A stretch of 64,000 nucleotides of DNA, taken from Chloroflexota bacterium (GTDB lineage: Bacteria; Chloroflexota; Dehalococcoidia; Lucifugimonadales; Lucifugimonadaceae). A program made the position numbers and the translations under genes. Below the pieces are notes generated by a model. That model was not told the DNA's origin. It saw nothing but the letters and a program-made list of their open reading frames with translations, and searched no databases. Each line of letters opens with the position of its first letter. Position 1 is the stretch's first letter. Positions 3,542 to 54,701 of this stretch are shown in pieces. Where the stretch lies: the NCBI GenBank assembly GCA_013204545.1, contig JABMNN010000046.1, positions 11,724 to 75,723 of the forward strand, in the 5' to 3' direction.

Positions 3542-3568
3542 CGTGATTTCGAATCAGAGGGCAATATC

Positions 3569-4369
3569 ATGAATCTCAAACTTCTTGGCAAACGGGCATT
3601 GGTTACAGGCGGAAGCAGAGGAATCGGTAAGGCAATTGCTCGCATGCTGGCCGAAGAGGGCGTTTCGGTAGTGATCTCGGCACGTGGGGTTGAAGCACTT
3701 GATGCAGCTGCCGAGGAGCTGACGAACGAAACTGGGTCAACTGTAATCGCGATCGTCGCCGATACCGGTTCAGACGATAGTGTCAGGAACCTGATTGTCG
3801 AAGCCAAATCCGTCATGGGAGGTATCGATATCCTCGTGAATTGTGCCGCTCGTCCGGGCGGACAAAGCACGGTGCCGACGCTTGCAAGTGTTACCACCGA
3901 AGAGTTCAACGATCATATGAACGTAAAAGTCATGGGCTATCTGAGATGTGCTCGTGAAGTCGCGCCGATAATGACCGAGCAGGGCTGGGGTAGGATTATC
4001 AATATCTCTGGGCTGGCATCCCGAAGTACCGGAACGGTAGTCGGGTCAATGCGCAACGTTGCCGTCACTGCGATGACGAAGAATCTGGCCGACGAATTGG
4101 GACCCCACGGCATCAATGTGACTGTGATTCACCCCGGTATGACTCGCACTGAAGCAACTGATGGTGTCATCGCCAAGCGTGCTGCTGACGAAGGCGTGAG
4201 CGAAGAAGAGATCGAGAGAAAATTGGCTCAAGGAAATTCTTCACGAACGATAATTGAAGCAGCCGACATTGCATACGTAGTCGCCATATTGGCATCGCCA
4301 CTATCGATCGCCATTAATGGCGACGGAATTGCAGCTGGCGGTGGTGTAGGAACAGCGATCTACTATTAG
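3569..4369 (+). CDS. Short-chain dehydrogenase/reductase (SDR)
   Basis: 266-aa ORF with the TGGSRGIGKAIA cofactor loop, and SDR length and layout. Confidence 0.85.
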   Translation: MNLKLLGKRALVTGGSRGIGKAIARMLAEEGVSVVISARGVEALDAAAEELTNETGSTVIAIVADTGSDDSVRNLIVEAKSVMGGIDILVNCAARPGGQSTVPTLASVTTEEFNDHMNVKVMGYLRCAREVAPIMTEQGWGRIINISGLASRSTGTVVGSMRNVAVTAMTKNLADELGPHGINVTVIHPGMTRTEATDGVIAKRAADEGVSEEEIERKLAQGNSSRTIIEAADIAYVVAILASPLSIAINGDGIAAGGGVGTAIYY

Positions 4370-9011: not shown

Positions 9012-9524
9012 ATGTCGAACTCCCAAAACGCACAACACCAGAAGAATTCTGCTGTTTCTTTTATCGCCGAGACCATCGCCACCGGACTTGGTTCTGGGCG
9101 TTGGCCTTTCGTGGCTCCCGCCACTGTTGGAACGTTCGCTGCTTTGATTGCATACTGGCTACTAGATGTTGGAGTGTTTGGCGGTGAAGGTGATTCGATT
9201 TGGTTCTTTTCGCTGATCATAGCTGTGACTGCAGCGGGGATTTGGTCGACTGATTACATCGACTCAACAGACGATCACGATCCGAAACGAGGCGTTATCG
9301 ACGAGTGGGTTGGTGTTTGGGTAACGGTGTTGTTTTTACCCGTGACCTTGCCGTGGATGATCGCTGGATTCTTCATATTTCGAGCGTTGGACATCTTCAA
9401 ACCCCTCGGTGTGAGAAGAATCGAGGCGTGGCCCGGCGGGTGGGGTATCATGTTCGACGATATCGCCGCTGGGATTATCGGTGCTGTGATACTGAATGCG
9501 ATTCGGCTGATTTTCTTCACTTAA
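9012..9524 (+). CDS. pgpA: Phosphatidylglycerophosphatase A
   Basis: 170-aa membrane ORF with GSGRWPFVAPATVGT and DPKRGVIDEWVG, which are PgpA-like motifs. Confidence 0.75.
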   Translation: MSNSQNAQHQKNSAVSFIAETIATGLGSGRWPFVAPATVGTFAALIAYWLLDVGVFGGEGDSIWFFSLIIAVTAAGIWSTDYIDSTDDHDPKRGVIDEWVGVWVTVLFLPVTLPWMIAGFFIFRALDIFKPLGVRRIEAWPGGWGIMFDDIAAGIIGAVILNAIRLIFFT

Positions 9525-10339
9525 CCGCTGGAACGCATTTTAAGTACTTGCCCGAAGAACGTATTGACTAACATAACGAACCGTTCTGGTTGGGCATCGT
9601 GCATCCCGTGGCCCACATCGTCCCATTTCACGTACCGACCAAGTGCAAGTAGGTCGCTCGCTCGTGTGGCGTCGACATCGGTTAGCGCAGCGCCCTTGTC
9701 TGGGTTTGCCTGCATGAGAAGCACCGGCAACTCTATTTCGTTCAATACTGCGTCTGGAGCCCAAGACTCCGCTATGCGCCCTTCGCCAGGGAATACCCAG
9801 ACCTCTGGGTCGACTTTGGTAATTGAAATCGCCCTTCTGAGAATTACCTCATCCGTTGATTTTTCATCCGTTTTTCGCAGCTCAGTGGCGGTGTTTTTTA
9901 CGCTGAGATTCTTGTTGCGAATATCGAGGGACGCCTGAAATTGAGAAGTTTGCTCAACATATAACGGAGGGTCTTCCAGTACTGCCGCAGCCACGAGGTC
10001 TGGAGTGACAGCACACACGCCGCTCGCCGTCACTGCACCTAGTGAGTGACCTACGAGGTATGCAGGTTGCCCAACCACATTTCGCAGGAACTCAACGACT
10101 TCAATTGGGTAATCGATGAACCGGTAAGCACCGGGAGTTCTACCGGAATCACCGTGCCCTCGAAGATCTATGGCGTAAATGTGCCAATTCTCAGAGAATT
10201 CATCAATTACGGCTGACCAATTTGCCCAGCGACCGCCTATACCGTGAATCAACACCATTGGAGGTCCGTTATCTGGACCTTCCGCGTAGTTCACTTCGAT
10301 CGAACTGGATGAAAATTTCTTTTCTGGATAAATGATCAT
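9521..10339 (-). CDS. Alpha/beta hydrolase
   Basis: 272-aa ORF with the HGIGG oxyanion region, the nucleophile elbow GHSLGA, and a C-terminal GH. Confidence 0.8.
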   Translation of the reverse strand: MIIYPEKKFSSSSIEVNYAEGPDNGPPMVLIHGIGGRWANWSAVIDEFSENWHIYAIDLRGHGDSGRTPGAYRFIDYPIEVVEFLRNVVGQPAYLVGHSLGAVTASGVCAVTPDLVAAAVLEDPPLYVEQTSQFQASLDIRNKNLSVKNTATELRKTDEKSTDEVILRRAISITKVDPEVWVFPGEGRIAESWAPDAVLNEIELPVLLMQANPDKGAALTDVDATRASDLLALGRYVKWDDVGHGMHDAQPERFVMLVNTFFGQVLKMRSSG

Positions 10340-22631: not shown

Positions 22632-23465
22632 ATGGAAAAGAGTCCATTTGGGATATTGACGCCGATCAGTGCCGATGCAGCCTGTTGCAGTGGCGCAAAT
22701 GACGCAGAAATTACTAATGCTCAACTTGATTCGATCACAGCTGCTGTACAGCACCAGTACGGAGCATTGGCGACGAATGCCGCTGTTAGGGCGACGGACG
22801 GCTCGATAGTAAAAGCGACGGACAAGTTCTATTCAGATGAACAGCGTAGTGTTTTGCCAGATGAGGCGGCAGGGGCATCAGCTGGTTGCGGAAATCCGGT
22901 CGGAATTGCCGATGCACTGCCCGGCGAAACTGTTCTCGATCTCGGTTCAGGCGGTGGAATCGATTGTTTCCTTGCTGCTAAAGAGGTCGGTCCAGGAGGA
23001 CATGTGATCGGCATCGACATGACGCCACGCATGATCGAACTGGCGCAAAAGAACGCTGCCAGCCTTGGTACCGAAAATGTTGTATTCAAGTTGGGGCACA
23101 TCGAGTCGATCCCTCAGCCTGACAACACGGTCGATCTTGTAATTTCGAACTGTGTCATAGCACTTTCTGAGCAAAAGGATCGAGTGTTTTCTGAGATACA
23201 CAGAATCTTGAAGCCCGGCGGACGGTTCGTGATTTCCGACATGGTCACTTCACATGCGCTACCAGCTGATGTACAAGCGTCGGCAACTGAATGGGTTGCC
23301 TGTGTCGGTGGTGCAGCGGTCATGAGTGAATACCTTGAGATGGTAAACGACGCTGGCTTCGGTAATGTCGATGTGATCAAAAGTGTCCCGAGTTACCCTG
23401 ATTCTGACGACTGGCGCTCGTTGATGATCAACCTGACTCTACGGGCATTCAAGCCAGCATCGTAA
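22632..23465 (+). CDS. arsM: Arsenite S-adenosylmethionine methyltransferase-like protein (ArsM/AS3MT family, all four conserved Cys present)
   Basis: N-terminal CC pair (AACCSG), GCGNP, SAM motif VLDLGSGGGIDCF, ISNCVIAL and WVACVGGA. Confidence 0.75.
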   Translation: MEKSPFGILTPISADAACCSGANDAEITNAQLDSITAAVQHQYGALATNAAVRATDGSIVKATDKFYSDEQRSVLPDEAAGASAGCGNPVGIADALPGETVLDLGSGGGIDCFLAAKEVGPGGHVIGIDMTPRMIELAQKNAASLGTENVVFKLGHIESIPQPDNTVDLVISNCVIALSEQKDRVFSEIHRILKPGGRFVISDMVTSHALPADVQASATEWVACVGGAAVMSEYLEMVNDAGFGNVDVIKSVPSYPDSDDWRSLMINLTLRAFKPAS

Positions 23466-23613
23466 GCGTCAAACACTTTTGTATTCGGCTGAGAGATCGG
23501 ACTCTAAAATGTTTTGGCGGGACTGATGTTTTCTCAAAACACTCAAATGAAGCATTGAGACTGCGTATTGCAGTACGATATGAATAGAATCCAGCATCTT
23601 TGGAGATTCAGAA

Positions 23614-24468
23614 GTGGAAGCCCGGAAGTTCGTATTTTTATCGCCTGATTACGGCAGTTCGATTACCGAAAACGGTTGTTGTGGTTCCGGCTGCTGCGAT
23701 TTTGAAGCCGTGGTGCTTTCTGGAAACGCGAAAGACATCACGAATGCGGTGAAGCAGCGCTACGGTGCCCTTGCGGAACGAGCTGGTAAACGCGGACTTA
23801 AGGCATCCGACAACAAAGCATCAGATCAGTTCTACTCGGAAGATCAACGTTTGGCTTTAACTGACGAAGCTGCTGGAGCTTCGACTGGATGTGGAAACCC
23901 GGTTAAAGTTGCCGATGTCAAAACGGGAGAAACAGTACTTGATCTTGGGTGTGGTGGTGGTATTGATTGCTTCCTCGCAGCCAAAAGCGTTGGGAATACT
24001 GGTCGGGTAATCGGCGTCGACATGACCCCACGGATGATCAGTCTCGCACGTAACAACGCGAAGAAATTGAATGCATCTAACGTGGTGTTCAAGAGGGGTC
24101 ACATCGAGCAGATTCCACAGGACGAAACCACGGTGGATCTTGTTATTTCAAACGGGTCAATCTCACAGTCTGAGTGGAAGCACTTGGTCTTTTCAGAGAT
24201 TTTTAGAATTCTGAAAGCAGGTGGCCGCTTCGTTATTTCCGACATTATTACTACTGAACCGCTTCCCGACAGCGTTCGGGATTCGACCGCTAGGTGGGTT
24301 GAAGGCGTCGGTGGGGCTGCCGTGAAGCGCAGTTATCTGACCATGATCGAAGCTGCCGGGTTTGTCGATGTTGAAATTCTTGAGGAACGAGCGAGTACGA
24401 GAGGGAATGAAGAGTGGAGTTCATCGGTTGTAAACCTCACTCTAAGGGCGCACAAGCCCGCTAAGTAG
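23614..24468 (+). CDS. ArsM-like SAM methyltransferase paralog lacking two conserved Cys
   Basis: GTG start preceded by GGAGA. Cys-rich N-terminus NGCCGSGCCDFE, GCGNP, and VLDLGCGGGIDCF. The other two sites read ISNGSISQ and WVEGVGGA, with Cys replaced in both. Confidence 0.7.
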   Translation: MEARKFVFLSPDYGSSITENGCCGSGCCDFEAVVLSGNAKDITNAVKQRYGALAERAGKRGLKASDNKASDQFYSEDQRLALTDEAAGASTGCGNPVKVADVKTGETVLDLGCGGGIDCFLAAKSVGNTGRVIGVDMTPRMISLARNNAKKLNASNVVFKRGHIEQIPQDETTVDLVISNGSISQSEWKHLVFSEIFRILKAGGRFVISDIITTEPLPDSVRDSTARWVEGVGGAAVKRSYLTMIEAAGFVDVEILEERASTRGNEEWSSSVVNLTLRAHKPAK

Positions 24469-40082: not shown

Positions 40083-41378
40083 ATGGCAGAAATTCAGCCT
40101 TTCAGGGCAGTACGTTACAACCCAGATGTAGCAGGCGATGTGAGTCTTCACATTTGCCCGCCGTTCGACGTGATCACGCCACAGCTGCAGCAAGAGTTAT
40201 ATGACCGTTCACCCTACAACATCGTCCGGCTGGAACTGGCACGACGTGGGCTCTCATCTGATCCATACGAACTAGCAGCTGAAACTGCTCAGGTTTGGAC
40301 CGAATCGGGTGTGCTTAAGCATGAAGAAGCTCCTTCGATTTATGTGACCGAAGAGGAGTTCGAATATCAAGGTCAGAAACTGTTAAGACGCGGATTTGTC
40401 GCAGCGGTAAGGCTCGAGGACTACGACAAAAAAGTCATTCTCCCGCACGAAGGTACTCGTTCCGAATGGGTTGCCGATCGTGTGAAACTGATGGGCGTGG
40501 CGCAGTCGAATTATAGCCCGTTACTTGTGATTTATCGAGATGATCTGATATCGAGCGTAGGCAATTTAGTTCGGGCGATAGCGGGTGGTAAACCCACAGC
40601 TGTATTCACTCCTCCCGACATGCCACAGTTGCGACTCTGGCGGGTATCTGACCCCGGAACGATCCATGTACTTCAAGATGCTTTGAAGAACTCCGAAATA
40701 TTCATTGCTGACGGGCACCATCGTTATGAGGCAGCGCTCCGCTATCGGGGGAGTGTGCGGGCTGAGCGTGAAGTAGGTCATGACGAATCGATCAACTTCC
40801 GGATGATGCTTATGGTTTCGTTCGATGAGCCGGGTCTGATCACTCGTGGCTATCATCGGCTCATCGAATCGCCTACTGAGGTCGAATTCGCAGCGATCGT
40901 GAAGTCGATAGAAACTACTTGCGATCTGGAAGAGTGGACCCCTGACCGAGGTCTATCGACGGCTGACCAAATTGAAGAATTTTCAGTGGCTCTGGGTGAA
41001 CGACAAGGTGATGAAGTTACTTTTGGCCTGTTTTCAAAGGAGCCGGGTAAGTTCCATATCGCTCGAATGAAATCCCCCCCTCCAGCTGAGAATGCCCTCG
41101 ACAACTCTGAGTATTCTCAACTGCACTCGCACATCATTCGGCCGGCAATCCCAGCGGAACGGGAAGAACAGGTTATTAGCCCTCACCATGATGCCGGGCT
41201 AATCGCCCGCCAGATCGAAAGCGGTGCTGCTCGAATGGCGTTCATCATGCGACCAGTGCCGCTCAGAGAGTTCGTTGCGATAGTAACCCGCGGTTGGCGA
41301 TTACCAGCCAAGGCAACGAATTTTTACCCGAAGCCACCCGCAGGGGCAGTTATTCAAAGATTTGGTGACCAGCTCTAG
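40083..41378 (+). CDS. DUF1015-family protein
   Basis: 431-aa ORF with the N-terminal IQPFRAVRYNP and the central IADGHHRYEAAL. The family assignment is from memory. Confidence 0.75.
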   Translation: MAEIQPFRAVRYNPDVAGDVSLHICPPFDVITPQLQQELYDRSPYNIVRLELARRGLSSDPYELAAETAQVWTESGVLKHEEAPSIYVTEEEFEYQGQKLLRRGFVAAVRLEDYDKKVILPHEGTRSEWVADRVKLMGVAQSNYSPLLVIYRDDLISSVGNLVRAIAGGKPTAVFTPPDMPQLRLWRVSDPGTIHVLQDALKNSEIFIADGHHRYEAALRYRGSVRAEREVGHDESINFRMMLMVSFDEPGLITRGYHRLIESPTEVEFAAIVKSIETTCDLEEWTPDRGLSTADQIEEFSVALGERQGDEVTFGLFSKEPGKFHIARMKSPPPAENALDNSEYSQLHSHIIRPAIPAEREEQVISPHHDAGLIARQIESGAARMAFIMRPVPLREFVAIVTRGWRLPAKATNFYPKPPAGAVIQRFGDQL

Positions 41379-42016
41379 GCTGCGCCAGTGCTAAGCGACT
41401 CTTCGATTATGGAGAGCACTTCATCGACAGACGGTCGATCGCTCGGTTCGGCTGCCACTAGCCTCGCAATTAGGCTGCCGTGAGCGTTGAAAATGAAGCT
41501 GGCGGGATTTGGCTGACCATTGTTGTCTAAATCGAAAACCCGCCAATCGTTCGCCACTACATTGAGTGGATCGGCGATGAGTGAAAAATCGAGGCCAAAT
41601 TCATCGCGCATGTCGATCACTTGATTAGGCAGATCGGACACGATAACCACCACCTCGGCCCCCAAATTTTCGAACTCGTTGATCTTCACCTGAACGTCGC
41701 GCATCTGCGATATATCCAATTCGTCGGTCGAACTCGGTATGAACAAAAGATAGATGGGTACACTCCCTAGCAGGTCTTCGAGTCGAATATTTTCTCCAGC
41801 CACTGTTGTAACTGAGAAAACAGGGGCGAGTGACGCTGATGGCTCTTTCTGAACCACAGACGTTGGCGTAACTGCTTTCTCGGACGTTTCTACCGTAATG
41901 ACGAGCCCTTCGGAGGCCGGGCTTGGGTGTGAGTCGGCCTCCGAAGGGCTCGCACATGCCGTGGAGAAGAACAGCATTACGATGAAGGGGATAATCGAGA
42001 CAGCGCGGAGATTCAT
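41375..42016 (-). CDS. Redoxin/AhpC-TSA-fold lipoprotein lacking redox-active Cys
   Basis: Signal peptide with lipobox FFSTAC. Thioredoxin-fold layout collinear with the upstream gene, but the CxxC position reads LLFIPSSTDEL. The mature protein contains no Cys. Confidence 0.7.
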   Translation of the reverse strand: MNLRAVSIIPFIVMLFFSTACASPSEADSHPSPASEGLVITVETSEKAVTPTSVVQKEPSASLAPVFSVTTVAGENIRLEDLLGSVPIYLLFIPSSTDELDISQMRDVQVKINEFENLGAEVVVIVSDLPNQVIDMRDEFGLDFSLIADPLNVVANDWRVFDLDNNGQPNPASFIFNAHGSLIARLVAAEPSDRPSVDEVLSIIEESLSTGAA

Positions 42017-42026
42017 ACGTATGAGT

Positions 42027-42725
42027 CTAGCCGAGCTTTTCGATTTGTTCGATTATTTCTTCTGCTTCGACTTGATGGGTGTAGTTTAGGCCAACGTTTT
42101 GCCAAACGATCTCACCGTTTGTGTCGATAAGGAATACCGAAGCAGAAGCTAGTCCGTCGCCAAAAAGATTGAACACCCCGTACTGTTTCGGTATTTCCGG
42201 ATCGAGTGATGTAAATAGAATAGGAAATTCGTAACCTTGTGCGGCAGCCAGAGCAGCGGGGCCATCAAGATTGTCGGTGCTTATGGCCAGAATCTGAACT
42301 CCAGCGGCATCGAGTTCAGCCTGAGATCGTTGCAACTTCCCGAGTTGCCTTCTGCAGAACGTTCACCAATAGGCTCGGTAGAACACCACTGCCACCGGTT
42401 TGTCGCCTCGGAACTGTGAAAGTGTGTACTCGGTACCCTGGATAGACGGTAACGTGAAATCTGGGGCGAGTTTCGATGCTGGGCCCGGAGTGTTGACTAA
42501 TGGCGGCTCGGTTGGCGTCGGAATAGCGTCGATTGTCGAAGTCGGCTGTGTTAATTCAGAACCTGCTGTAGTTGCGGTTGGCGATCGCTCGGCTGCTGCG
42601 GCCGGTAATGACTCGACCGGATCTGAAGCCGGAGCGTCAGATTCGGCGGCCCCACATGCTGTAGTCAAAACGAACAATCCGACAATCAACAAAATCGTGA
42701 TTGTCATTCGGTCGCTTCGTGTCAT
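42027..42725 (-). CDS. Candidate selenoprotein: AhpC-TSA/redoxin-fold lipoprotein with in-frame UGA (U-T-F-C)
   Basis: ORFs 42363..42782 and 42027..42335 share one frame and are split only by TGA 42363..42365. Read-through gives VAVVFYRAYW-U-TFCRRQLGKLQRSQAELD. Lipoprotein signal MTRSDRMTITILLIVGLFVLTTAC. The start is placed at ATG 42723..42725, though GTG 42782 is possible. Confidence 0.65.
42321..42357 (-). promoter_or_regulatory. Candidate bacterial SECIS stem-loop
   Basis: mRNA fold CUG-C-AGA-AG-GCAACU-[CGGGA]-AGUUGC-AACGA-UCU-CAG, starting 5 nt after the UGA. The apical loop begins 20 nt after the UGA. Confidence 0.5.
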
Positions 42726-42781
42726 ATCTAAGCTCATCAGAGCAGTTCGTCCAAACAAGTACATCGCCATGTAGAAAGGCA

Positions 42782-42797
42782 CAGTCGACTTCGACTG
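42782..42797 (-). terminator. Possible terminator hairpin after the aminotransferase gene
   Basis: CAGTCGA/TCGACTG inverted repeat, followed on the minus strand by UGCCUUUCU. Confidence 0.3.
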
Positions 42798-42856: not shown

Positions 42857-43957
42857 TTACGAAGTCATCGACTTGAGGGTTTCCTCTGCTGCCTTCAAAG
42901 CTTCATCGATGTGCGATTTTTCGACCCACCCCATGTGACCAACTCGGAATATTTTTCCAGCTAGTGACTTTTGACCACCGCCAAGAATCACGTTGTAATT
43001 CTTGGTGACCTGCGCCAAGAATGCTTTGCCGTCGAGACCCTCCGGCAATTTGATTGCGGTAACGGTGTTGGAAGCAAATTTTGGGTCGGGCAGTAGTTCG
43101 AGACCAAGAGCCTTCGCTCCGTCTCGGGTGTGCTGCGCGATTTCGTGGTGACGTGCAAAGACGTTTTCAATGCCTTCATCGACCATCGATTGTAGTGCGA
43201 ATTCAAGAGTGAATATAGCTGGCAGGCACGGCGTGAACGGCGGTTGGCCGATCTTGCGGTAGTCTTCGTATTGTTGGATGTCGAGATAGTACTTCGGAGT
43301 GGTCGACTCGCCGTAAGCCTTCCACGCCTCTTCTGAGAACGTGACCATGGAAATACCGGGAGGCGAAATCCAACTCTTCTGCGATGCGGTAGCAACAACG
43401 TCGATGCCCCAAGCGTCGACAGCGATAGGAACGCCACCGGCGCTGGATACAGCGTCGACAAGGATCAGGGCGTCTGACTCCTCGTGAATGACTTTGCAAA
43501 GGTCTTCAAGTGGGTTAGAAACACCGGTCGAACTTTCGTTGTGAGTGAAGATCACTGCCTTCACATTCGACATGCCCTTGAGAGTCTCACGGACTTTATC
43601 GAGATCGGCAGCCTGCCCGAGATCGAATGAAAGGCGATTGACATCTGCGCGGTATGCCTCGGCAATTTCTGCGAATCTTTCACCGAACGCACCGATGATG
43701 ATCGATAGAACTTTATCGCCAGGTGAAAGGGTGTTCACCACTGCGGTTTCCATCGCTCCAGTTCCCGACGACGTGATGAAGTACACATCGTTCTGGGTCA
43801 TGAACACCGTCTTCAAATTTCTCGTCATGCGATCAAGCATGTCGGCGTACTCAGGGCCCCGATGATTGATCATCTGCGACCCGGCGAGTTTGAGGACATC
43901 GTCGGGTAGTGGTACTGGTCCTGGGATTCGAAGGTTTGGCTGGTTCTGGCTGCTCAC
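42857..43957 (-). CDS. Class V PLP aminotransferase (serine-pyruvate / alanine-glyoxylate type)
   Basis: 366-aa ORF with a GTG start preceded by ACGGAG. N-terminal IPGPVPLP and the PLP-lysine context ATASQKSW. Confidence 0.9.
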   Translation of the reverse strand: MSSQNQPNLRIPGPVPLPDDVLKLAGSQMINHRGPEYADMLDRMTRNLKTVFMTQNDVYFITSSGTGAMETAVVNTLSPGDKVLSIIIGAFGERFAEIAEAYRADVNRLSFDLGQAADLDKVRETLKGMSNVKAVIFTHNESSTGVSNPLEDLCKVIHEESDALILVDAVSSAGGVPIAVDAWGIDVVATASQKSWISPPGISMVTFSEEAWKAYGESTTPKYYLDIQQYEDYRKIGQPPFTPCLPAIFTLEFALQSMVDEGIENVFARHHEIAQHTRDGAKALGLELLPDPKFASNTVTAIKLPEGLDGKAFLAQVTKNYNVILGGGQKSLAGKIFRVGHMGWVEKSHIDEALKAAEETLKSMTS

Positions 43958-44732
43958 CGGAGTGCTCCGTTCATACGGAATGTGACTACTAAATTATGTA
44001 AAGTTTCGACCGTTGCCATGATTGCTTTTGCAATCGATCAATGGACGACCGTCAAGAATTCTAACTCTCACCATGTAAAACGGCTGTAAATTCAGTGCGA
44101 GGAGTTAGTGAGGGGTATTACCGATTCTCAACAAAGCCCTCGATCTGAATATCAAAGATCTTTATATCTGATCAACATCAAGTCAACATAACGGAGTTAC
44201 TATGGCTGCGGTCTGATTAGACGATTCCAATGCGGGGCCGAACTAACAAAATACGGAGTATCAGTGAATGACAATTCCCGGAATGTCTGTAACAGCTATT
44301 CTGTTGATAACTACCACCCCGTTTTTTTGTCTAGGGATTGGAGTTCTGAAGCGCAGGAAGTATTTGGTGTTAGTCCACTGGTCTCAGAGTAGACTACCTC
44401 GACTTGCTGAATCCCACCCGCTCTCAATCGAGTCACTTGGGCTGGCACGGCATACGAATCGATCCCCTGGCTTTACTAGCAATTCACCAATTCGATTCGA
44501 CGGATGCTTTCTGCCTAGCTTGATAGTGTCTGGACCAAATGAACGCCTTATGCAAGCACAAACCCGTCCCGAGTGGCAAGCGTTAGTAGCCTTGCCGGAT
44601 ACTTGGGCTTCCCGAATGTTCGTAACTTTTTTTTGGTGGACTGGGTCTAGTAGGCGGAATCGTCTTGACAATCTTCGCGATTTATTTCGGTTACAGCATG
44701 GAAGTGTGAACATGCTGGAACTCTCTAATTGC

Positions 44733-46046
44733 CTACTCCGCTAGCTTCACTAGCGAGTAGTTTTTGCGACCTCGCCTGATAACGAGGAGACGATCTTCGA
44801 CGAGATCATCGACACCGACCGAACGACCTGCGTCGACTATCTGCTCACCGTTGAGGTACATGCCGCCCTGTTCGATGGTGCGTCGTACGTCGCCACCTGA
44901 TTTTCCTGCTCCGGCCGAAACAGCGAGATCCACGAATCGAATGCCTTCGCCGGATAGCTGATCTCGATTTACATCGGTAACCGAAGAACCTTCGAGCACG
45001 TCTTCCAGTTCGTCAGCAGATAGTCCGGATATATCGCCACCAAAGAACGCACGAGTCACTTTCAAAGCCTGATCGAGTCCGCCATGACCGTGAATCGTTC
45101 GCGTTACTTCTTCGGCAAGTGCTTGCTGAGCTTCACGCTTCTGTGGCTCGATGCTCACAGCTTCCGCCAAGCCACCCACCTGAACCTGATTCAGCATAGT
45201 GAACAGCTTCACGTAAGGCACTGCGTCAGCGTCTGCAACGTTCAAAAAGAATTGATACAGCTTGTAAGGTGATGTTTGCTTGGGATCGAGCGTTGGCGCA
45301 CCACCAATCGACTTCCCGAACTTCTCTCCAGTCGAGCTACTCACCAAGGGGTAAGCGATTCCATGGGCCCGTGGCCGACCTTCGGAGTCGGCTCCATGAA
45401 TCCTTCGAATCAAGTCGACGCCACCCAGAATGTTGCCCCACTGGTCGCTACCGCCGGCCTGAAAGCCAACATGGTCTTGCTCGTAGAGCGTCAGAAAATC
45501 ATATGCCTGAAGCAACTGGTAGCTGAACTCTGTGAACGATATTCCGCTGTCTCGATCGAATCGACCTTTTACGGACTCGCGCCCCATCATCGAATTAACA
45601 GTGAAGTGTTTACCAACATCTCTTAGGAACGGAAGCAATTCTGTTGTTCGAAGCCAGTCGGCGTTGTTGACCATACGCGCTGGATTGGATTTTGCTTTGA
45701 AATCCAAAAACGGTTCGAGTTGCAGGCGAATTGCTTCGACGTTATCGTCGATTTCAGCGATCGACATTAACGTTCGCTCATCAGCGCGACCCGAAGGATC
45801 ACCGATCATGCCTGTACCGCCGCCGACAAGCGCTACGGGTGTGTGACCGTAACGTTGAAGTCGAACAAGTCCCATAACCGGAACCAGATTGCCAATATGA
45901 AGACTGCTCGCCGTAGGGTCGAAACCGTTGTAGCAAGTGACTTTTTCAGTGGCGAGTGTGTGAGTTGCACCAGGGGTGGCGTCGAAGAGTGCACCTCTCC
46001 ATTCGAGGTCTTCAGCTACGTTTTGAAATTCAGTGTCGGTAGTCAT
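44733..46046 (-). CDS. tyrS: Tyrosyl-tRNA synthetase
   Basis: 437-aa ORF with the HIGH-type motif SLHIGNL, the KMSKS-type motif KFGKS, and a C-terminal S4-like domain. Confidence 0.95.
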   Translation of the reverse strand: MTTDTEFQNVAEDLEWRGALFDATPGATHTLATEKVTCYNGFDPTASSLHIGNLVPVMGLVRLQRYGHTPVALVGGGTGMIGDPSGRADERTLMSIAEIDDNVEAIRLQLEPFLDFKAKSNPARMVNNADWLRTTELLPFLRDVGKHFTVNSMMGRESVKGRFDRDSGISFTEFSYQLLQAYDFLTLYEQDHVGFQAGGSDQWGNILGGVDLIRRIHGADSEGRPRAHGIAYPLVSSSTGEKFGKSIGGAPTLDPKQTSPYKLYQFFLNVADADAVPYVKLFTMLNQVQVGGLAEAVSIEPQKREAQQALAEEVTRTIHGHGGLDQALKVTRAFFGGDISGLSADELEDVLEGSSVTDVNRDQLSGEGIRFVDLAVSAGAGKSGGDVRRTIEQGGMYLNGEQIVDAGRSVGVDDLVEDRLLVIRRGRKNYSLVKLAE

Positions 46047-53708: not shown

Positions 53709-53815
53709 GAAAGTCTGACCAATTCGACATTGGCAAGAAGTGCGCGCCAGCGATCTAGTTTTTAGACGTGCATTTCGGTGGGAATCACCCATTCGATGTC
53801 ACTAGGAGTGCGAAC

Positions 53816-54433
53816 ATAGCAAAAGAATTTAGGGTGAATCGCCGAATTCGAGCTGAAGAAGTTCGGGTGATTCGTGGCGAGGATGCTTCTGTCTCGACAG
53901 TGATGAATATTCGTGATGCACTGGAGATGGCTGAGGAAGAAGGCCTCGATCTTGTTGAGGTTGGCCCTAACCAAACTCCACCTGTGTGTCGCCTGCTTGA
54001 TTATGGTCGTTTCAAATTTATTCAAGGGAAGAAACAAAGAGAAGCTAGAAAAGTCTCTCGTAGTGCGAGCAAGCAAAAAGAAGTAAGGCTCAGCCCTGTG
54101 ATGTCGGACAACGACATCGAAACGAAAATTAAAATGACTAAACACCTTCTTGAAGAAGGTGCGAAAGTCAGAGTGTTTGTGCGGTTTCGTGGACGACAGT
54201 TTGCCCACCCCGAAATCGCAATGAAAGTATTGAGAAAAGTCGCGGAAGGTGTCGCTACCGTCGCGAAGTTGGAGAAACCGCCAGGAATGGAAGGTCGAGT
54301 GTTGAGCATCTTGCTTGCGCCATCGCCTATAGCCAAAGAGCGGATTCGACAGGAAAAGGCGACCTTGGTTGCTGTTACTGCCCCGGCAGTAAGAAGTGCC
54401 CCCGCTGATGTGGGCATTGCAGAAGAAGAATAG
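53816..54433 (+). CDS. infC: Translation initiation factor IF-3, probable ATA start
   Basis: (I)AKEFRVNRRIRAEEVRVI is the canonical IF-3 N-terminus. AGGAG at 53804..53808 lies 7 nt before ATA 53816..53818. The upstream in-frame GTG at 53768 has no SD. Confidence 0.9.
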   Translation: MAKEFRVNRRIRAEEVRVIRGEDASVSTVMNIRDALEMAEEEGLDLVEVGPNQTPPVCRLLDYGRFKFIQGKKQREARKVSRSASKQKEVRLSPVMSDNDIETKIKMTKHLLEEGAKVRVFVRFRGRQFAHPEIAMKVLRKVAEGVATVAKLEKPPGMEGRVLSILLAPSPIAKERIRQEKATLVAVTAPAVRSAPADVGIAEEE

Positions 54434-54497
54434 ATTCAGGTCACGATTGCCTGAACAACGGATCTGAAAAAAGAACTGAGAACGGAAACTACCTGAT

Positions 54498-54701
54498 ATG
54501 CCGAAGATGAAGACCCATAAGGGCGCCAAACACCGGTTCCACATTAGTGGTACTGGGAAGTTGCTGCGATCAAAGGGTCCGAAGAGTCACTTCCGCCGAC
54601 GTAAATCTGCGCGCATGAAGCGTTTGCTTGGCGGTAAAGTTGCCCTTGACTCAACCACGTTCTCAAGAACCATCAAACAGGCTCTTAGCGCACTTCGCTA
54701 G
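54498..54701 (+). CDS. rpmI: 50S ribosomal protein L35
   Basis: MPKMKTHKGAKHRF..., 67 aa and highly basic. Confidence 0.95.
   Translation: MPKMKTHKGAKHRFHISGTGKLLRSKGPKSHFRRRKSARMKRLLGGKVALDSTTFSRTIKQALSALR

Follow-up and report, generated by a model that had tools for sequence, protein, structure and literature searches.

The 64,000-nucleotide stretch of contig JABMNN010000046.1 analysed here (the window), from a Chloroflexota bacterium (assembly GCA_013204545.1), holds on its minus strand, at 42027..42737, a locus that is very probably one genuine selenocysteine (Sec)-encoding gene, predicted to specify a thioredoxin-fold lipoprotein of the SAR202 clade (Chloroflexota, Dehalococcoidia). 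Gene callers split it in two at an in-frame TGA. A first-pass annotation, made from the letters of the window alone, had put this locus forward as a candidate selenoprotein, and that reading is now supported by a conserved UGA that aligns with Cys in homologues, by selection on the codons downstream of it, and by a covarying hairpin that resembles a Sec insertion sequence (SECIS).

Reading frame and domain structure

The two minus-strand open reading frames (ORFs) called at this locus, 42363..42782 and 42027..42335, share one frame, as the first-pass annotation had stated. Their sole interruption is the TGA at 42365..42363, and the 30-nt offset that it had given between the TGA and the start of the downstream ORF (42365-42335) is correct. 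Translation of both ORFs across the stop reads ...KPVAVVFYRAYW*TFCRRQLGKLQRSQAELDAAGVQILAISTD... or, in a shorter excerpt, ...GDKPVAVVFYRAYW-[TGA]-TFCRRQLGKLQRSQAELDAAGVQILAISTD..., so that the motif is W-[UGA]-T-F-C. The further proposal that the two pieces make up one thioredoxin-fold protein is borne out by Pfam matches that cross the ORF junction when Cys is put for the stop in a 232-residue product: AhpC-TSA (PF00578) covers residues 85-208 with E 4.5e-25 and 88.4 bits against a cut-off of 26, and Redoxin (PF08534) matches with E 2.9e-19.

The start codon is most likely the ATG at 42737..42735 (MSLDMTRSDR...), a choice based on the approximately 12 residues that precede the hydrophobic core in the N-termini of orthologues; ATG 42725 and ATG 42770 are the alternatives, and GTG 42782 is just the longest extension made by the ORF finder. 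The TTG at 42335..42333, from which the downstream ORF seems to start, had been taken for an ORF-caller artefact, and rightly so, because it is a Leu codon within the 3' side of the hairpin stem (see below). Standard annotation also splits the locus in the way that had been anticipated: the orthologue in GCA_018664885.1 is called as two proteins of 167 and 102 residues, and among the fragments called in SAR202 metagenome-assembled genomes (MAGs) there is, for instance, a "redoxin domain-containing protein" that is truncated. The features of the gene are as follows.

42027..42737, minus strand: complete read-through coding sequence, 236 codons plus stop, with Sec predicted at codon 125
42654..42737, minus strand: predicted lipoprotein signal peptide, with the lipobox Cys codon TGT at 42656..42654 (..LFVLTTA-C-G)
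42474..42653, minus strand: Pro/Ala/Thr/Ser-rich low-complexity tether from the lipid anchor to the catalytic domain, recognised by composition
42102..42473, minus strand: AhpC-TSA/redoxin (thioredoxin-fold) domain with the TGA inside it, from Pfam and from PDB sequence matches to DsbE-like 3gl3 and AhpE
42363..42365, minus strand: in-frame UGA, predicted Sec codon (the U of W-U-T-F-C), from the cross-species TGA column
42354..42356, minus strand: TGC, predicted partner (resolving) Cys of UxxC, invariant in all homologues and aligned with the peroxidatic Cys of AhpE/BCP (HMMER, PDB chains)
42332..42348, minus strand: SECIS-like hairpin GCAACU-CGGGA-AGUUGC, +15..+31 after the UGA, from folding, covariation and bacterial SECIS (bSECIS) geometry
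42330..42362, minus strand: synonymous suppression in codons 1-11 following the UGA, from twelve SAR202 sequences

Conservation of the UGA codon

Some 50 database proteins, recovered by a protein search and drawn from diverse Chloroflexi/Dehalococcoidia, terminate without exception precisely at ...VFYRAYW; therefore gene callers stopped at the same column every time. At the DNA level, the codon in this column is TGA in the fetched loci L001-L008 and L010-L023, the carriers including the finished isolate genome of Candidatus Lucifugimonas marina JH545 (L013), the sole SAR202 species in culture, two SAR202 MAGs (L021 and L022), and a Dehalococcoidia chromosome (L023, OY759581.1) that has three tandem paralogues with TGA, at 2530, 3105 and 4421. 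The first-pass annotation had asked whether the column is Cys in homologues, and it is: the syntenic orthologue L009 (protein P0003) has TGC there (YW-C-PP-C), and L024-L035, which comprise two other Dehalococcoidia and ten Acidobacteriota, have TGT or TGC.

The TGA form extends well beyond these genomes. A metagenome scan with the pattern VFYR[AG][YF]W-TGA-xx-Cys yielded at least 120 stretches, mostly from soil (L036-L155), and the relatives listed carry VFYRGYW-U-PxC. Pooling the metagenome matches with the earlier loci gives at least 131 unique TGA-containing sequences, and in each of the 131 unique sequences among the matches listed whose contig is long enough, the frame stays open for about 110 codons past the TGA. 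Such a recurrence of TGA in one column goes far beyond chance. The TGA persists in near and remote relatives alike, free of the further disruptions that the first-pass annotation had named as a sign of decay.

Two of these loci have local peculiarities of their own. In L023, each Sec paralogue has its own hairpin variant, a local expansion of Sec genes, and a 122-bp tandem repeat (3546..4019; 3.9 copies, 90% identity) lies between paralogues 2 and 3. In L009, an upstream paralogue at ~9045..9985 looks frameshifted exactly at its YWCTAC active site, which could be an indel error of the long-read assembly or a real pseudogene.

Selection on the coding sequence

Comparison of the window gene with eleven SAR202 orthologues gave ratios of nonsynonymous to synonymous divergence (dN/dS) of 0.03-0.10 in the 110 codons downstream of the TGA and of 0.04-0.10 in the 45 codons upstream, and the two are indistinguishable; dS itself is saturated (>1.3) in these SAR202 comparisons. 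Because purifying selection after the TGA is this strong, the downstream part is translated, which excludes both a pseudogene and an untranslated tail.

A second signal lies on top of the first. Among twelve SAR202 sequences, synonymous differences between pairs average 0.158 over codons 1-11 past the UGA and 0.548 over codons 12-110 (Mann-Whitney p = 3.6e-5; dS saturated). Codons 1-2 still vary, and codons 3-11 (42330..42356) are nearly invariant. This suppression is the footprint of a putative RNA element that overlaps the coding sequence.

A SECIS-like hairpin after the UGA

The bSECIS model calls for a loop of 3-9 nt, a stem of 4-16 bp, a G in the first two loop positions, a UGA-to-loop distance of 16-37 nt, and a minimum free energy (MFE) of -7.5 kcal/mol or lower (PMC13188914). 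The first-pass annotation had proposed 42300..42365 as the region in which to look for such an element, and a SECIS-like hairpin that fits the geometry and covaries is present within it. Its stem is 6 bp long, and its apical loop of 5 nt (C-G-G-G-A), rich in G, starts 20 nt after the UGA, so that loop, stem, loop sequence and spacing all agree with the model. Constraints i-iii of the model hold in 113 of the 131 TGA forms among the matches listed. As for energy, the UGA plus 51 nt folds at -12.1 kcal/mol with the hairpin included, and -7.5 kcal/mol is reached only with flanking pairs, so that the outcome varies with the length of sequence folded.

The significance of this predicted element is entirely comparative. 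A hairpin of -4 kcal/mol or lower occurs in the SECIS zone of 95% of the 131 listed TGA forms versus 29% of 14 Cys forms. The mean hairpin energy of the TGA forms among the matches listed is -7.7 kcal/mol, against -3.4 for synonymous shuffles, and the hairpin energy of the 14 Cys forms is at shuffle level. When the MFE of the whole region is taken instead, the signal is weak (family median z = -0.86 versus synonymous shuffles).

Covariation was assessed in 39 sequences that share one register: 78.5% of cells are paired, six of eight pairs have changed on both sides, and there are 36 double-change cells, a degree of covariation that none of 500 shuffles reached. Sliding the register makes the paired share drop to 17-55%. 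The central pair (alignment columns 21/31) is G-C in 20 sequences, A-U in 16 and G-U in three, and is never unpaired. In L. marina (L013), the switch in this pair is made by two synonymous changes, CAA->CAG (Gln) and UUG->CUG (Leu). Subfamilies differ in stem and register, with loop centres at +19, +23, +26.5 and +27.5 among the listed TGA forms, and a small G/U-rich loop is always kept (AGUUA, AGUUG, GGUC, CGGGA or GUG). A conserved lower stem, CGUU/AACG (+2..+5 and +32..+35), was considered and rejected; it pairs in the window and is not kept in L010 or L013.

Alternative explanations and the decoding machinery

Several observations weigh against Sec insertion at this codon. None of selA, selB, selD and tRNA-Sec was found in the 64-kb window or in the 10 kb past each end, as searched with ARAGORN and Rfam and with Pfam scans of 38 further ORFs, the flanks being taken from the matching parent contig, ENA ERZ27059400 k141_15906 (98.8 kb). 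One homologue, P0002 (an ENA contig of 834 bp), has Trp in the Sec column (FYRAFW-W-AACK), presumably TGG. The metagenome scan demanded TGA by design, so that it yields no ratio of Sec to Cys forms. Finally, the hairpin of the window taken alone folds at -5.2 kcal/mol, which does not stand out from synonymous-codon shuffles (p = 0.25), the 86-nt fold of the window has z = -0.42, and no Rfam family matches the hairpin region.

The missing machinery, the Trp of P0002 and the modest hairpin would all suit an alternative in which the UGA is read through as Trp, Cys or Gly, by near-cognate decoding or a suppressor tRNA, and in which the hairpin only slows termination. We regard this as improbable on several grounds. 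TGA is a normal stop in six of 50 window genes, where it is the rarest (TAA 17, TAG 27), and in these six the Pfam alignments reach the ends of protein and profile (e.g. a class II aminoacyl-tRNA synthetase, an aldo-keto reductase and Pth); therefore UGA is not reassigned genome-wide. No suppressor tRNA is found in the window, whose sole tRNA is a tRNA-Ser with anticodon UGA (ARAGORN, Rfam). Moreover, the homologues without TGA all have Cys, which is what Sec replaces, with a single exception, and Trp or Gly would destroy an otherwise invariant CxxC redox centre. The exception is P0002, whose nearest relatives (L019-L022) have TGA; its Trp would inactivate the redox centre, and P0002 could be a loss-of-function variant or an error. 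Lastly, the position, loop size and leading G of the hairpin fit a SelB-dependent bSECIS across subfamilies despite their differing stems.

A wider search for the decoding machinery covered the 155 fetched loci (839 kb), in which ARAGORN found no tRNA-Sec and tblastn, with approximate E. coli SelA, SelB and SelD sequences as probes, gave one match only. That match, L091 6853..7881, was rejected as SelD, being a HypE/ThiL-like AIR-synthase relative below every NCBIfam cut-off; this protein, of the AIR-synthase superfamily, stands 6 kb away from a Sec-family gene of soil origin. Sec use has precedent at class level, since two Dehalococcoidia MAGs have 49 and 46 selenoprotein genes in BSepDB (PMC13326102), and marine Chloroflexi reportedly have formate dehydrogenases that contain Sec (PMC5736913). 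We infer that the Sec-insertion machinery is encoded in this genome.

There is a very slim chance that the UGA is a genuine stop, which would leave only the N-terminal part of the lipoprotein, perhaps alongside a C-terminal piece translated from its own start, the hairpin then serving another end such as coupling or attenuation. Gene callers do yield precisely these two ORFs, and there is a TTG 30 nt past the TGA. Termination here would, however, break the thioredoxin fold within the active site itself, between the W and the xxC, and the TTG is a conserved Leu codon within the stem that reads CTG in L013. In addition, the downstream part keeps the same frame in the 131 listed sequences and evolves under a constraint as strong as that upstream, and full-length Cys orthologues stand in the same synteny.

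A decaying pseudogene, in which a Cys codon mutated to a stop, would need only a single substitution (TGC or TGT to TGA), and the annotation does resemble gene fragments, but the TGA is common to species with saturated synonymous divergence and occurs there without further stops or frameshifts, and together with the dN/dS of 0.03-0.10 after it this effectively refutes the explanation. A sequencing or assembly error has a negligible chance and is ruled out because independent assemblies from NCBI, ENA, JGI and Logan, together with the finished isolate genome, all read the identical TGA.

Predicted membrane anchor and proposed mechanism

The lipoprotein-type N-terminus that the first-pass annotation described holds up: the lipobox IVGLFVLTTAC matches a PROSITE PS51257-style regular expression, and a lipobox is also present in 48 of 49 database N-terminal fragments of orthologues. 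The tether that follows is 18% Pro, 16% Ala, 14% Thr and 14% Ser, and its length and sequence differ between orthologues. The sortase gene in the window fits a monoderm envelope. The Pfam-scanned genes of the window include no Lgt or Lsp and no CcdA/DsbD partner gene.

If the gene is decoded with Sec, the hairpin would act as a bacterial SECIS, tethering SelB-GTP-Sec-tRNA(Sec) while the UGA is in the A site, and Sec would be inserted there instead of termination. The precursor would be exported via the general secretory (Sec) translocon and lipidated at Cys28, and the Pro/Thr/Ser/Ala-rich tether would hold the enzyme on the outer face of the cytoplasmic membrane. There, outside the membrane, the selenolate may attack a disulfide, sulfenate or peroxide substrate, and the resulting selenenylsulfide with the C of U-T-F-C could be re-reduced by a CcdA/DsbD-type shuttle or another donor.

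Genomic context and a Cys-less paralogue

The Sec gene stands in the order tyrosyl-tRNA synthetase (TyrRS), class V aminotransferase, Sec gene, second redoxin-like lipoprotein, DUF1015 (opposite strand) and NAD-dependent DNA ligase, and the same order is found in Chloroflexi/SAR202 MAGs. The closest genome matches are SAR202-type MAGs at 88% identity and Candidatus Lucifugimonas marina JH545, the first cultured SAR202, at 84%. The second lipoprotein is a tandem paralogue.

41375..42016, minus strand: tandem AhpC-TSA lipoprotein paralogue (Pfam PF00578, E 5.1e-14; lipobox found)

It starts 10 nt past the stop of the Sec gene, and because the gap is this short the two are probably co-transcribed. 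Both redox residues of the paralogue are replaced (..LLFIPSSTDELD..; FIPSSTDELD). A Cys-less paralogue lies beside the Sec gene in all 11 of the SAR202 group I loci examined (L001, L006 and L010-L018), and this conserved adjacency suggests that the two are a functional pair. The apparently redox-dead paralogue may thus be a partner of the Sec protein.

By Pfam, the rest of the window consists of ordinary housekeeping genes and the sortase. Other in-frame-TGA gene pairs in the window all overlap real genes in another frame or on the other strand and were discarded, leaving no second selenoprotein candidate. A minus-strand ORF of 260 residues at 53762..54544 has no family match and is probably spurious; the matching contig calls a plus-strand ORF, 53768..54433, as translation initiation factor IF3, adjoined by ribosomal protein L35. 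Between the aminotransferase and tyrS, 776 nt (43957..44733) are without a supported gene, holding only an unsupported ORF of 158 residues and no Rfam match, and the corresponding gap in L001 is ~416 nt. Two adjoining paralogues of S-adenosylmethionine-dependent methyltransferases (Methyltransf_31/25/11) occupy 22632..24468 on the plus strand.

Significance

SAR202 group I bacteria rank with the most abundant heterotrophs of the ocean interior, and their cultivation is recent. UxxC peroxiredoxin (Prx)-like selenoproteins as such have long been known, for ~20 years, and are abundant in marine metagenomes, and the known principles of Sec decoding and of Sec/Cys exchange in thioredoxin-fold proteins are unchanged by the present case. 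What is apparently unreported is the use of Sec in SAR202, the clade's lipoprotein architecture and the putative partner that lacks Cys; in the searchable SAR202 literature, selenium is unmentioned except in author names, and the same holds for the description of the Candidatus Lucifugimonas cultures.

For annotation, one new Sec-aware model would rescue at least 130 distinct ocean and soil genes. For physiology, the gene implies Sec decoding of UGA and a selenium requirement in SAR202 group I, which bears on the media used for a clade that is hard to grow. For biochemistry, an outward-facing, lipid-anchored predicted selenoenzyme in an aerobic monoderm offers a tractable test of Sec versus Cys in an oxidising exterior. 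A further idea is speculative and, in our judgement, unlikely: SAR202 group I may depend on selenium for a surface U-x-x-C selenolipoprotein that, with its redox-dead paralogue, would defend the envelope from external oxidants, in which case selenium limitation would lead to termination at the UGA and loss of the defence, and could contribute to the extremely slow growth and light sensitivity of Candidatus Lucifugimonas cultures.

Comparison with known systems

One comparison is with peroxiredoxins of the AhpE/BCP/PrxQ type, which have the same fold. The first-pass annotation had placed the TGA exactly at the N-terminal redox Cys, and this stands in terms of a thioredoxin-like W-C-x-x-C and fails for the peroxidatic residue of a Prx: PDB alignments put Sec on the conserved Thr of PxxxTxxC, and it is the next Cys, that of UxxC, that corresponds to the peroxidatic Cys of AhpE, BCP and PrxQ. 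The Sec of PrxU (TxxU) is the peroxidatic residue, whereas the predicted Sec of the window protein lies three residues upstream of it. The site, as aligned, is a thioredoxin-like W-U-x-x-C on a Prx scaffold and not a canonical peroxidase, because the Pro and Thr of PxxxTxxC are replaced by Arg and Sec (FYRAYWUTFC). The Prx equivalog cut-offs of NCBIfam are all missed widely (BCP-type 42.6 versus 140 bits, PrxQ 34.2 versus 260, PrxU 30.3 versus 270, AhpC 22.6 versus 272).

Proteins of the TlpA/ResA/DsbE/Etrx type (PDB 3gl3, 4nmu, 1jfu, 2yp6 and 4hqz) resemble the predicted lipoprotein in their outward membrane tether and in a W-C-x-x-C that opens helix 1; the WCGPC of the DsbE-like thiol:disulfide interchange protein 3gl3 aligns with W-[U]-TFC of the window (E 6e-11). 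In contrast to the window protein, these proteins use Cys, and their NCBIfam cut-offs are missed as well (ResA 40.9 versus 170, TlpA 26.6 versus 230, DsbE 20 versus 123, StoA 20.7 versus 210).

Among curated selenoprotein models, the SelL-related, Rcas_1661, ResA-like WAxxUGC, TUGYCR and PrxU models were all tried and rejected as below cut-off, and neither the window protein nor any of six relatives (five from soil, one SAR202) attains the cut-off of any NCBIfam model. The best NCBIfam score belongs to the SelL-related redox protein NF040769, whose match takes in the redox motif and spans the N-terminal half of the fold; with 52.9 bits where the cut-off is 120, the window protein is not a member by the NCBI criterion, and the same six relatives score 38-59 bits, all below the cut-off. 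Eukaryotic SelL is a Prx-like protein with UxxU. The thioredoxin-like (seleno)lipoprotein family Rcas_1661 (NF041057), whose name we take as a hint of the Chloroflexota genus Roseiflexus, embodies the same concept of lipoprotein, thioredoxin fold and optional Sec. It is nevertheless a different family, since the match scores 26.1 bits against a cut-off of 190 and is limited to the signal and the N-terminal part.

At the RNA level, the window hairpin is like the bSECIS, with E. coli fdhF as prototype, in its loop, its stem, its leading loop Gs and its spacing from the UGA. It differs in that, folded alone, its -5.2 kcal/mol falls short of -7.5 kcal/mol and in that its role in binding SelB is a predicted one.

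The family whose definition the window gene fits has a long history. Reviews of the prokaryotic selenoproteome list UxxC "Prx-like" proteins, reportedly after Kryukov and Gladyshev 2004. In the literature, known since 2004-2005, these appear as "Prx-like protein" in the Sargasso Sea data and as "Prx-like 1" in the Global Ocean Sampling data, the latter with 225 sequences (PMC2398784). Prx-like thiol:disulfide oxidoreductase selenoproteins are defined by PF00578 together with UxxC (or UxxU) where true Prx have TxxC or TxxU, and not by TxxU or UGC (PMC9312934, PMC1088965). By this operational definition of the reviews, domain plus motif, the window gene with its predicted Sec belongs to the Prx-like UxxC family, which it resembles in the PF00578 domain, in Sec as the first residue of UxxC, in the existence of Cys homologues, in a putative SECIS within the coding region and in abundance in marine metagenomes. 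Beyond this common plan, the SAR202 proteins carry a lipoprotein signal and a long tether, and their gene has a Cys-less paralogue in tandem.

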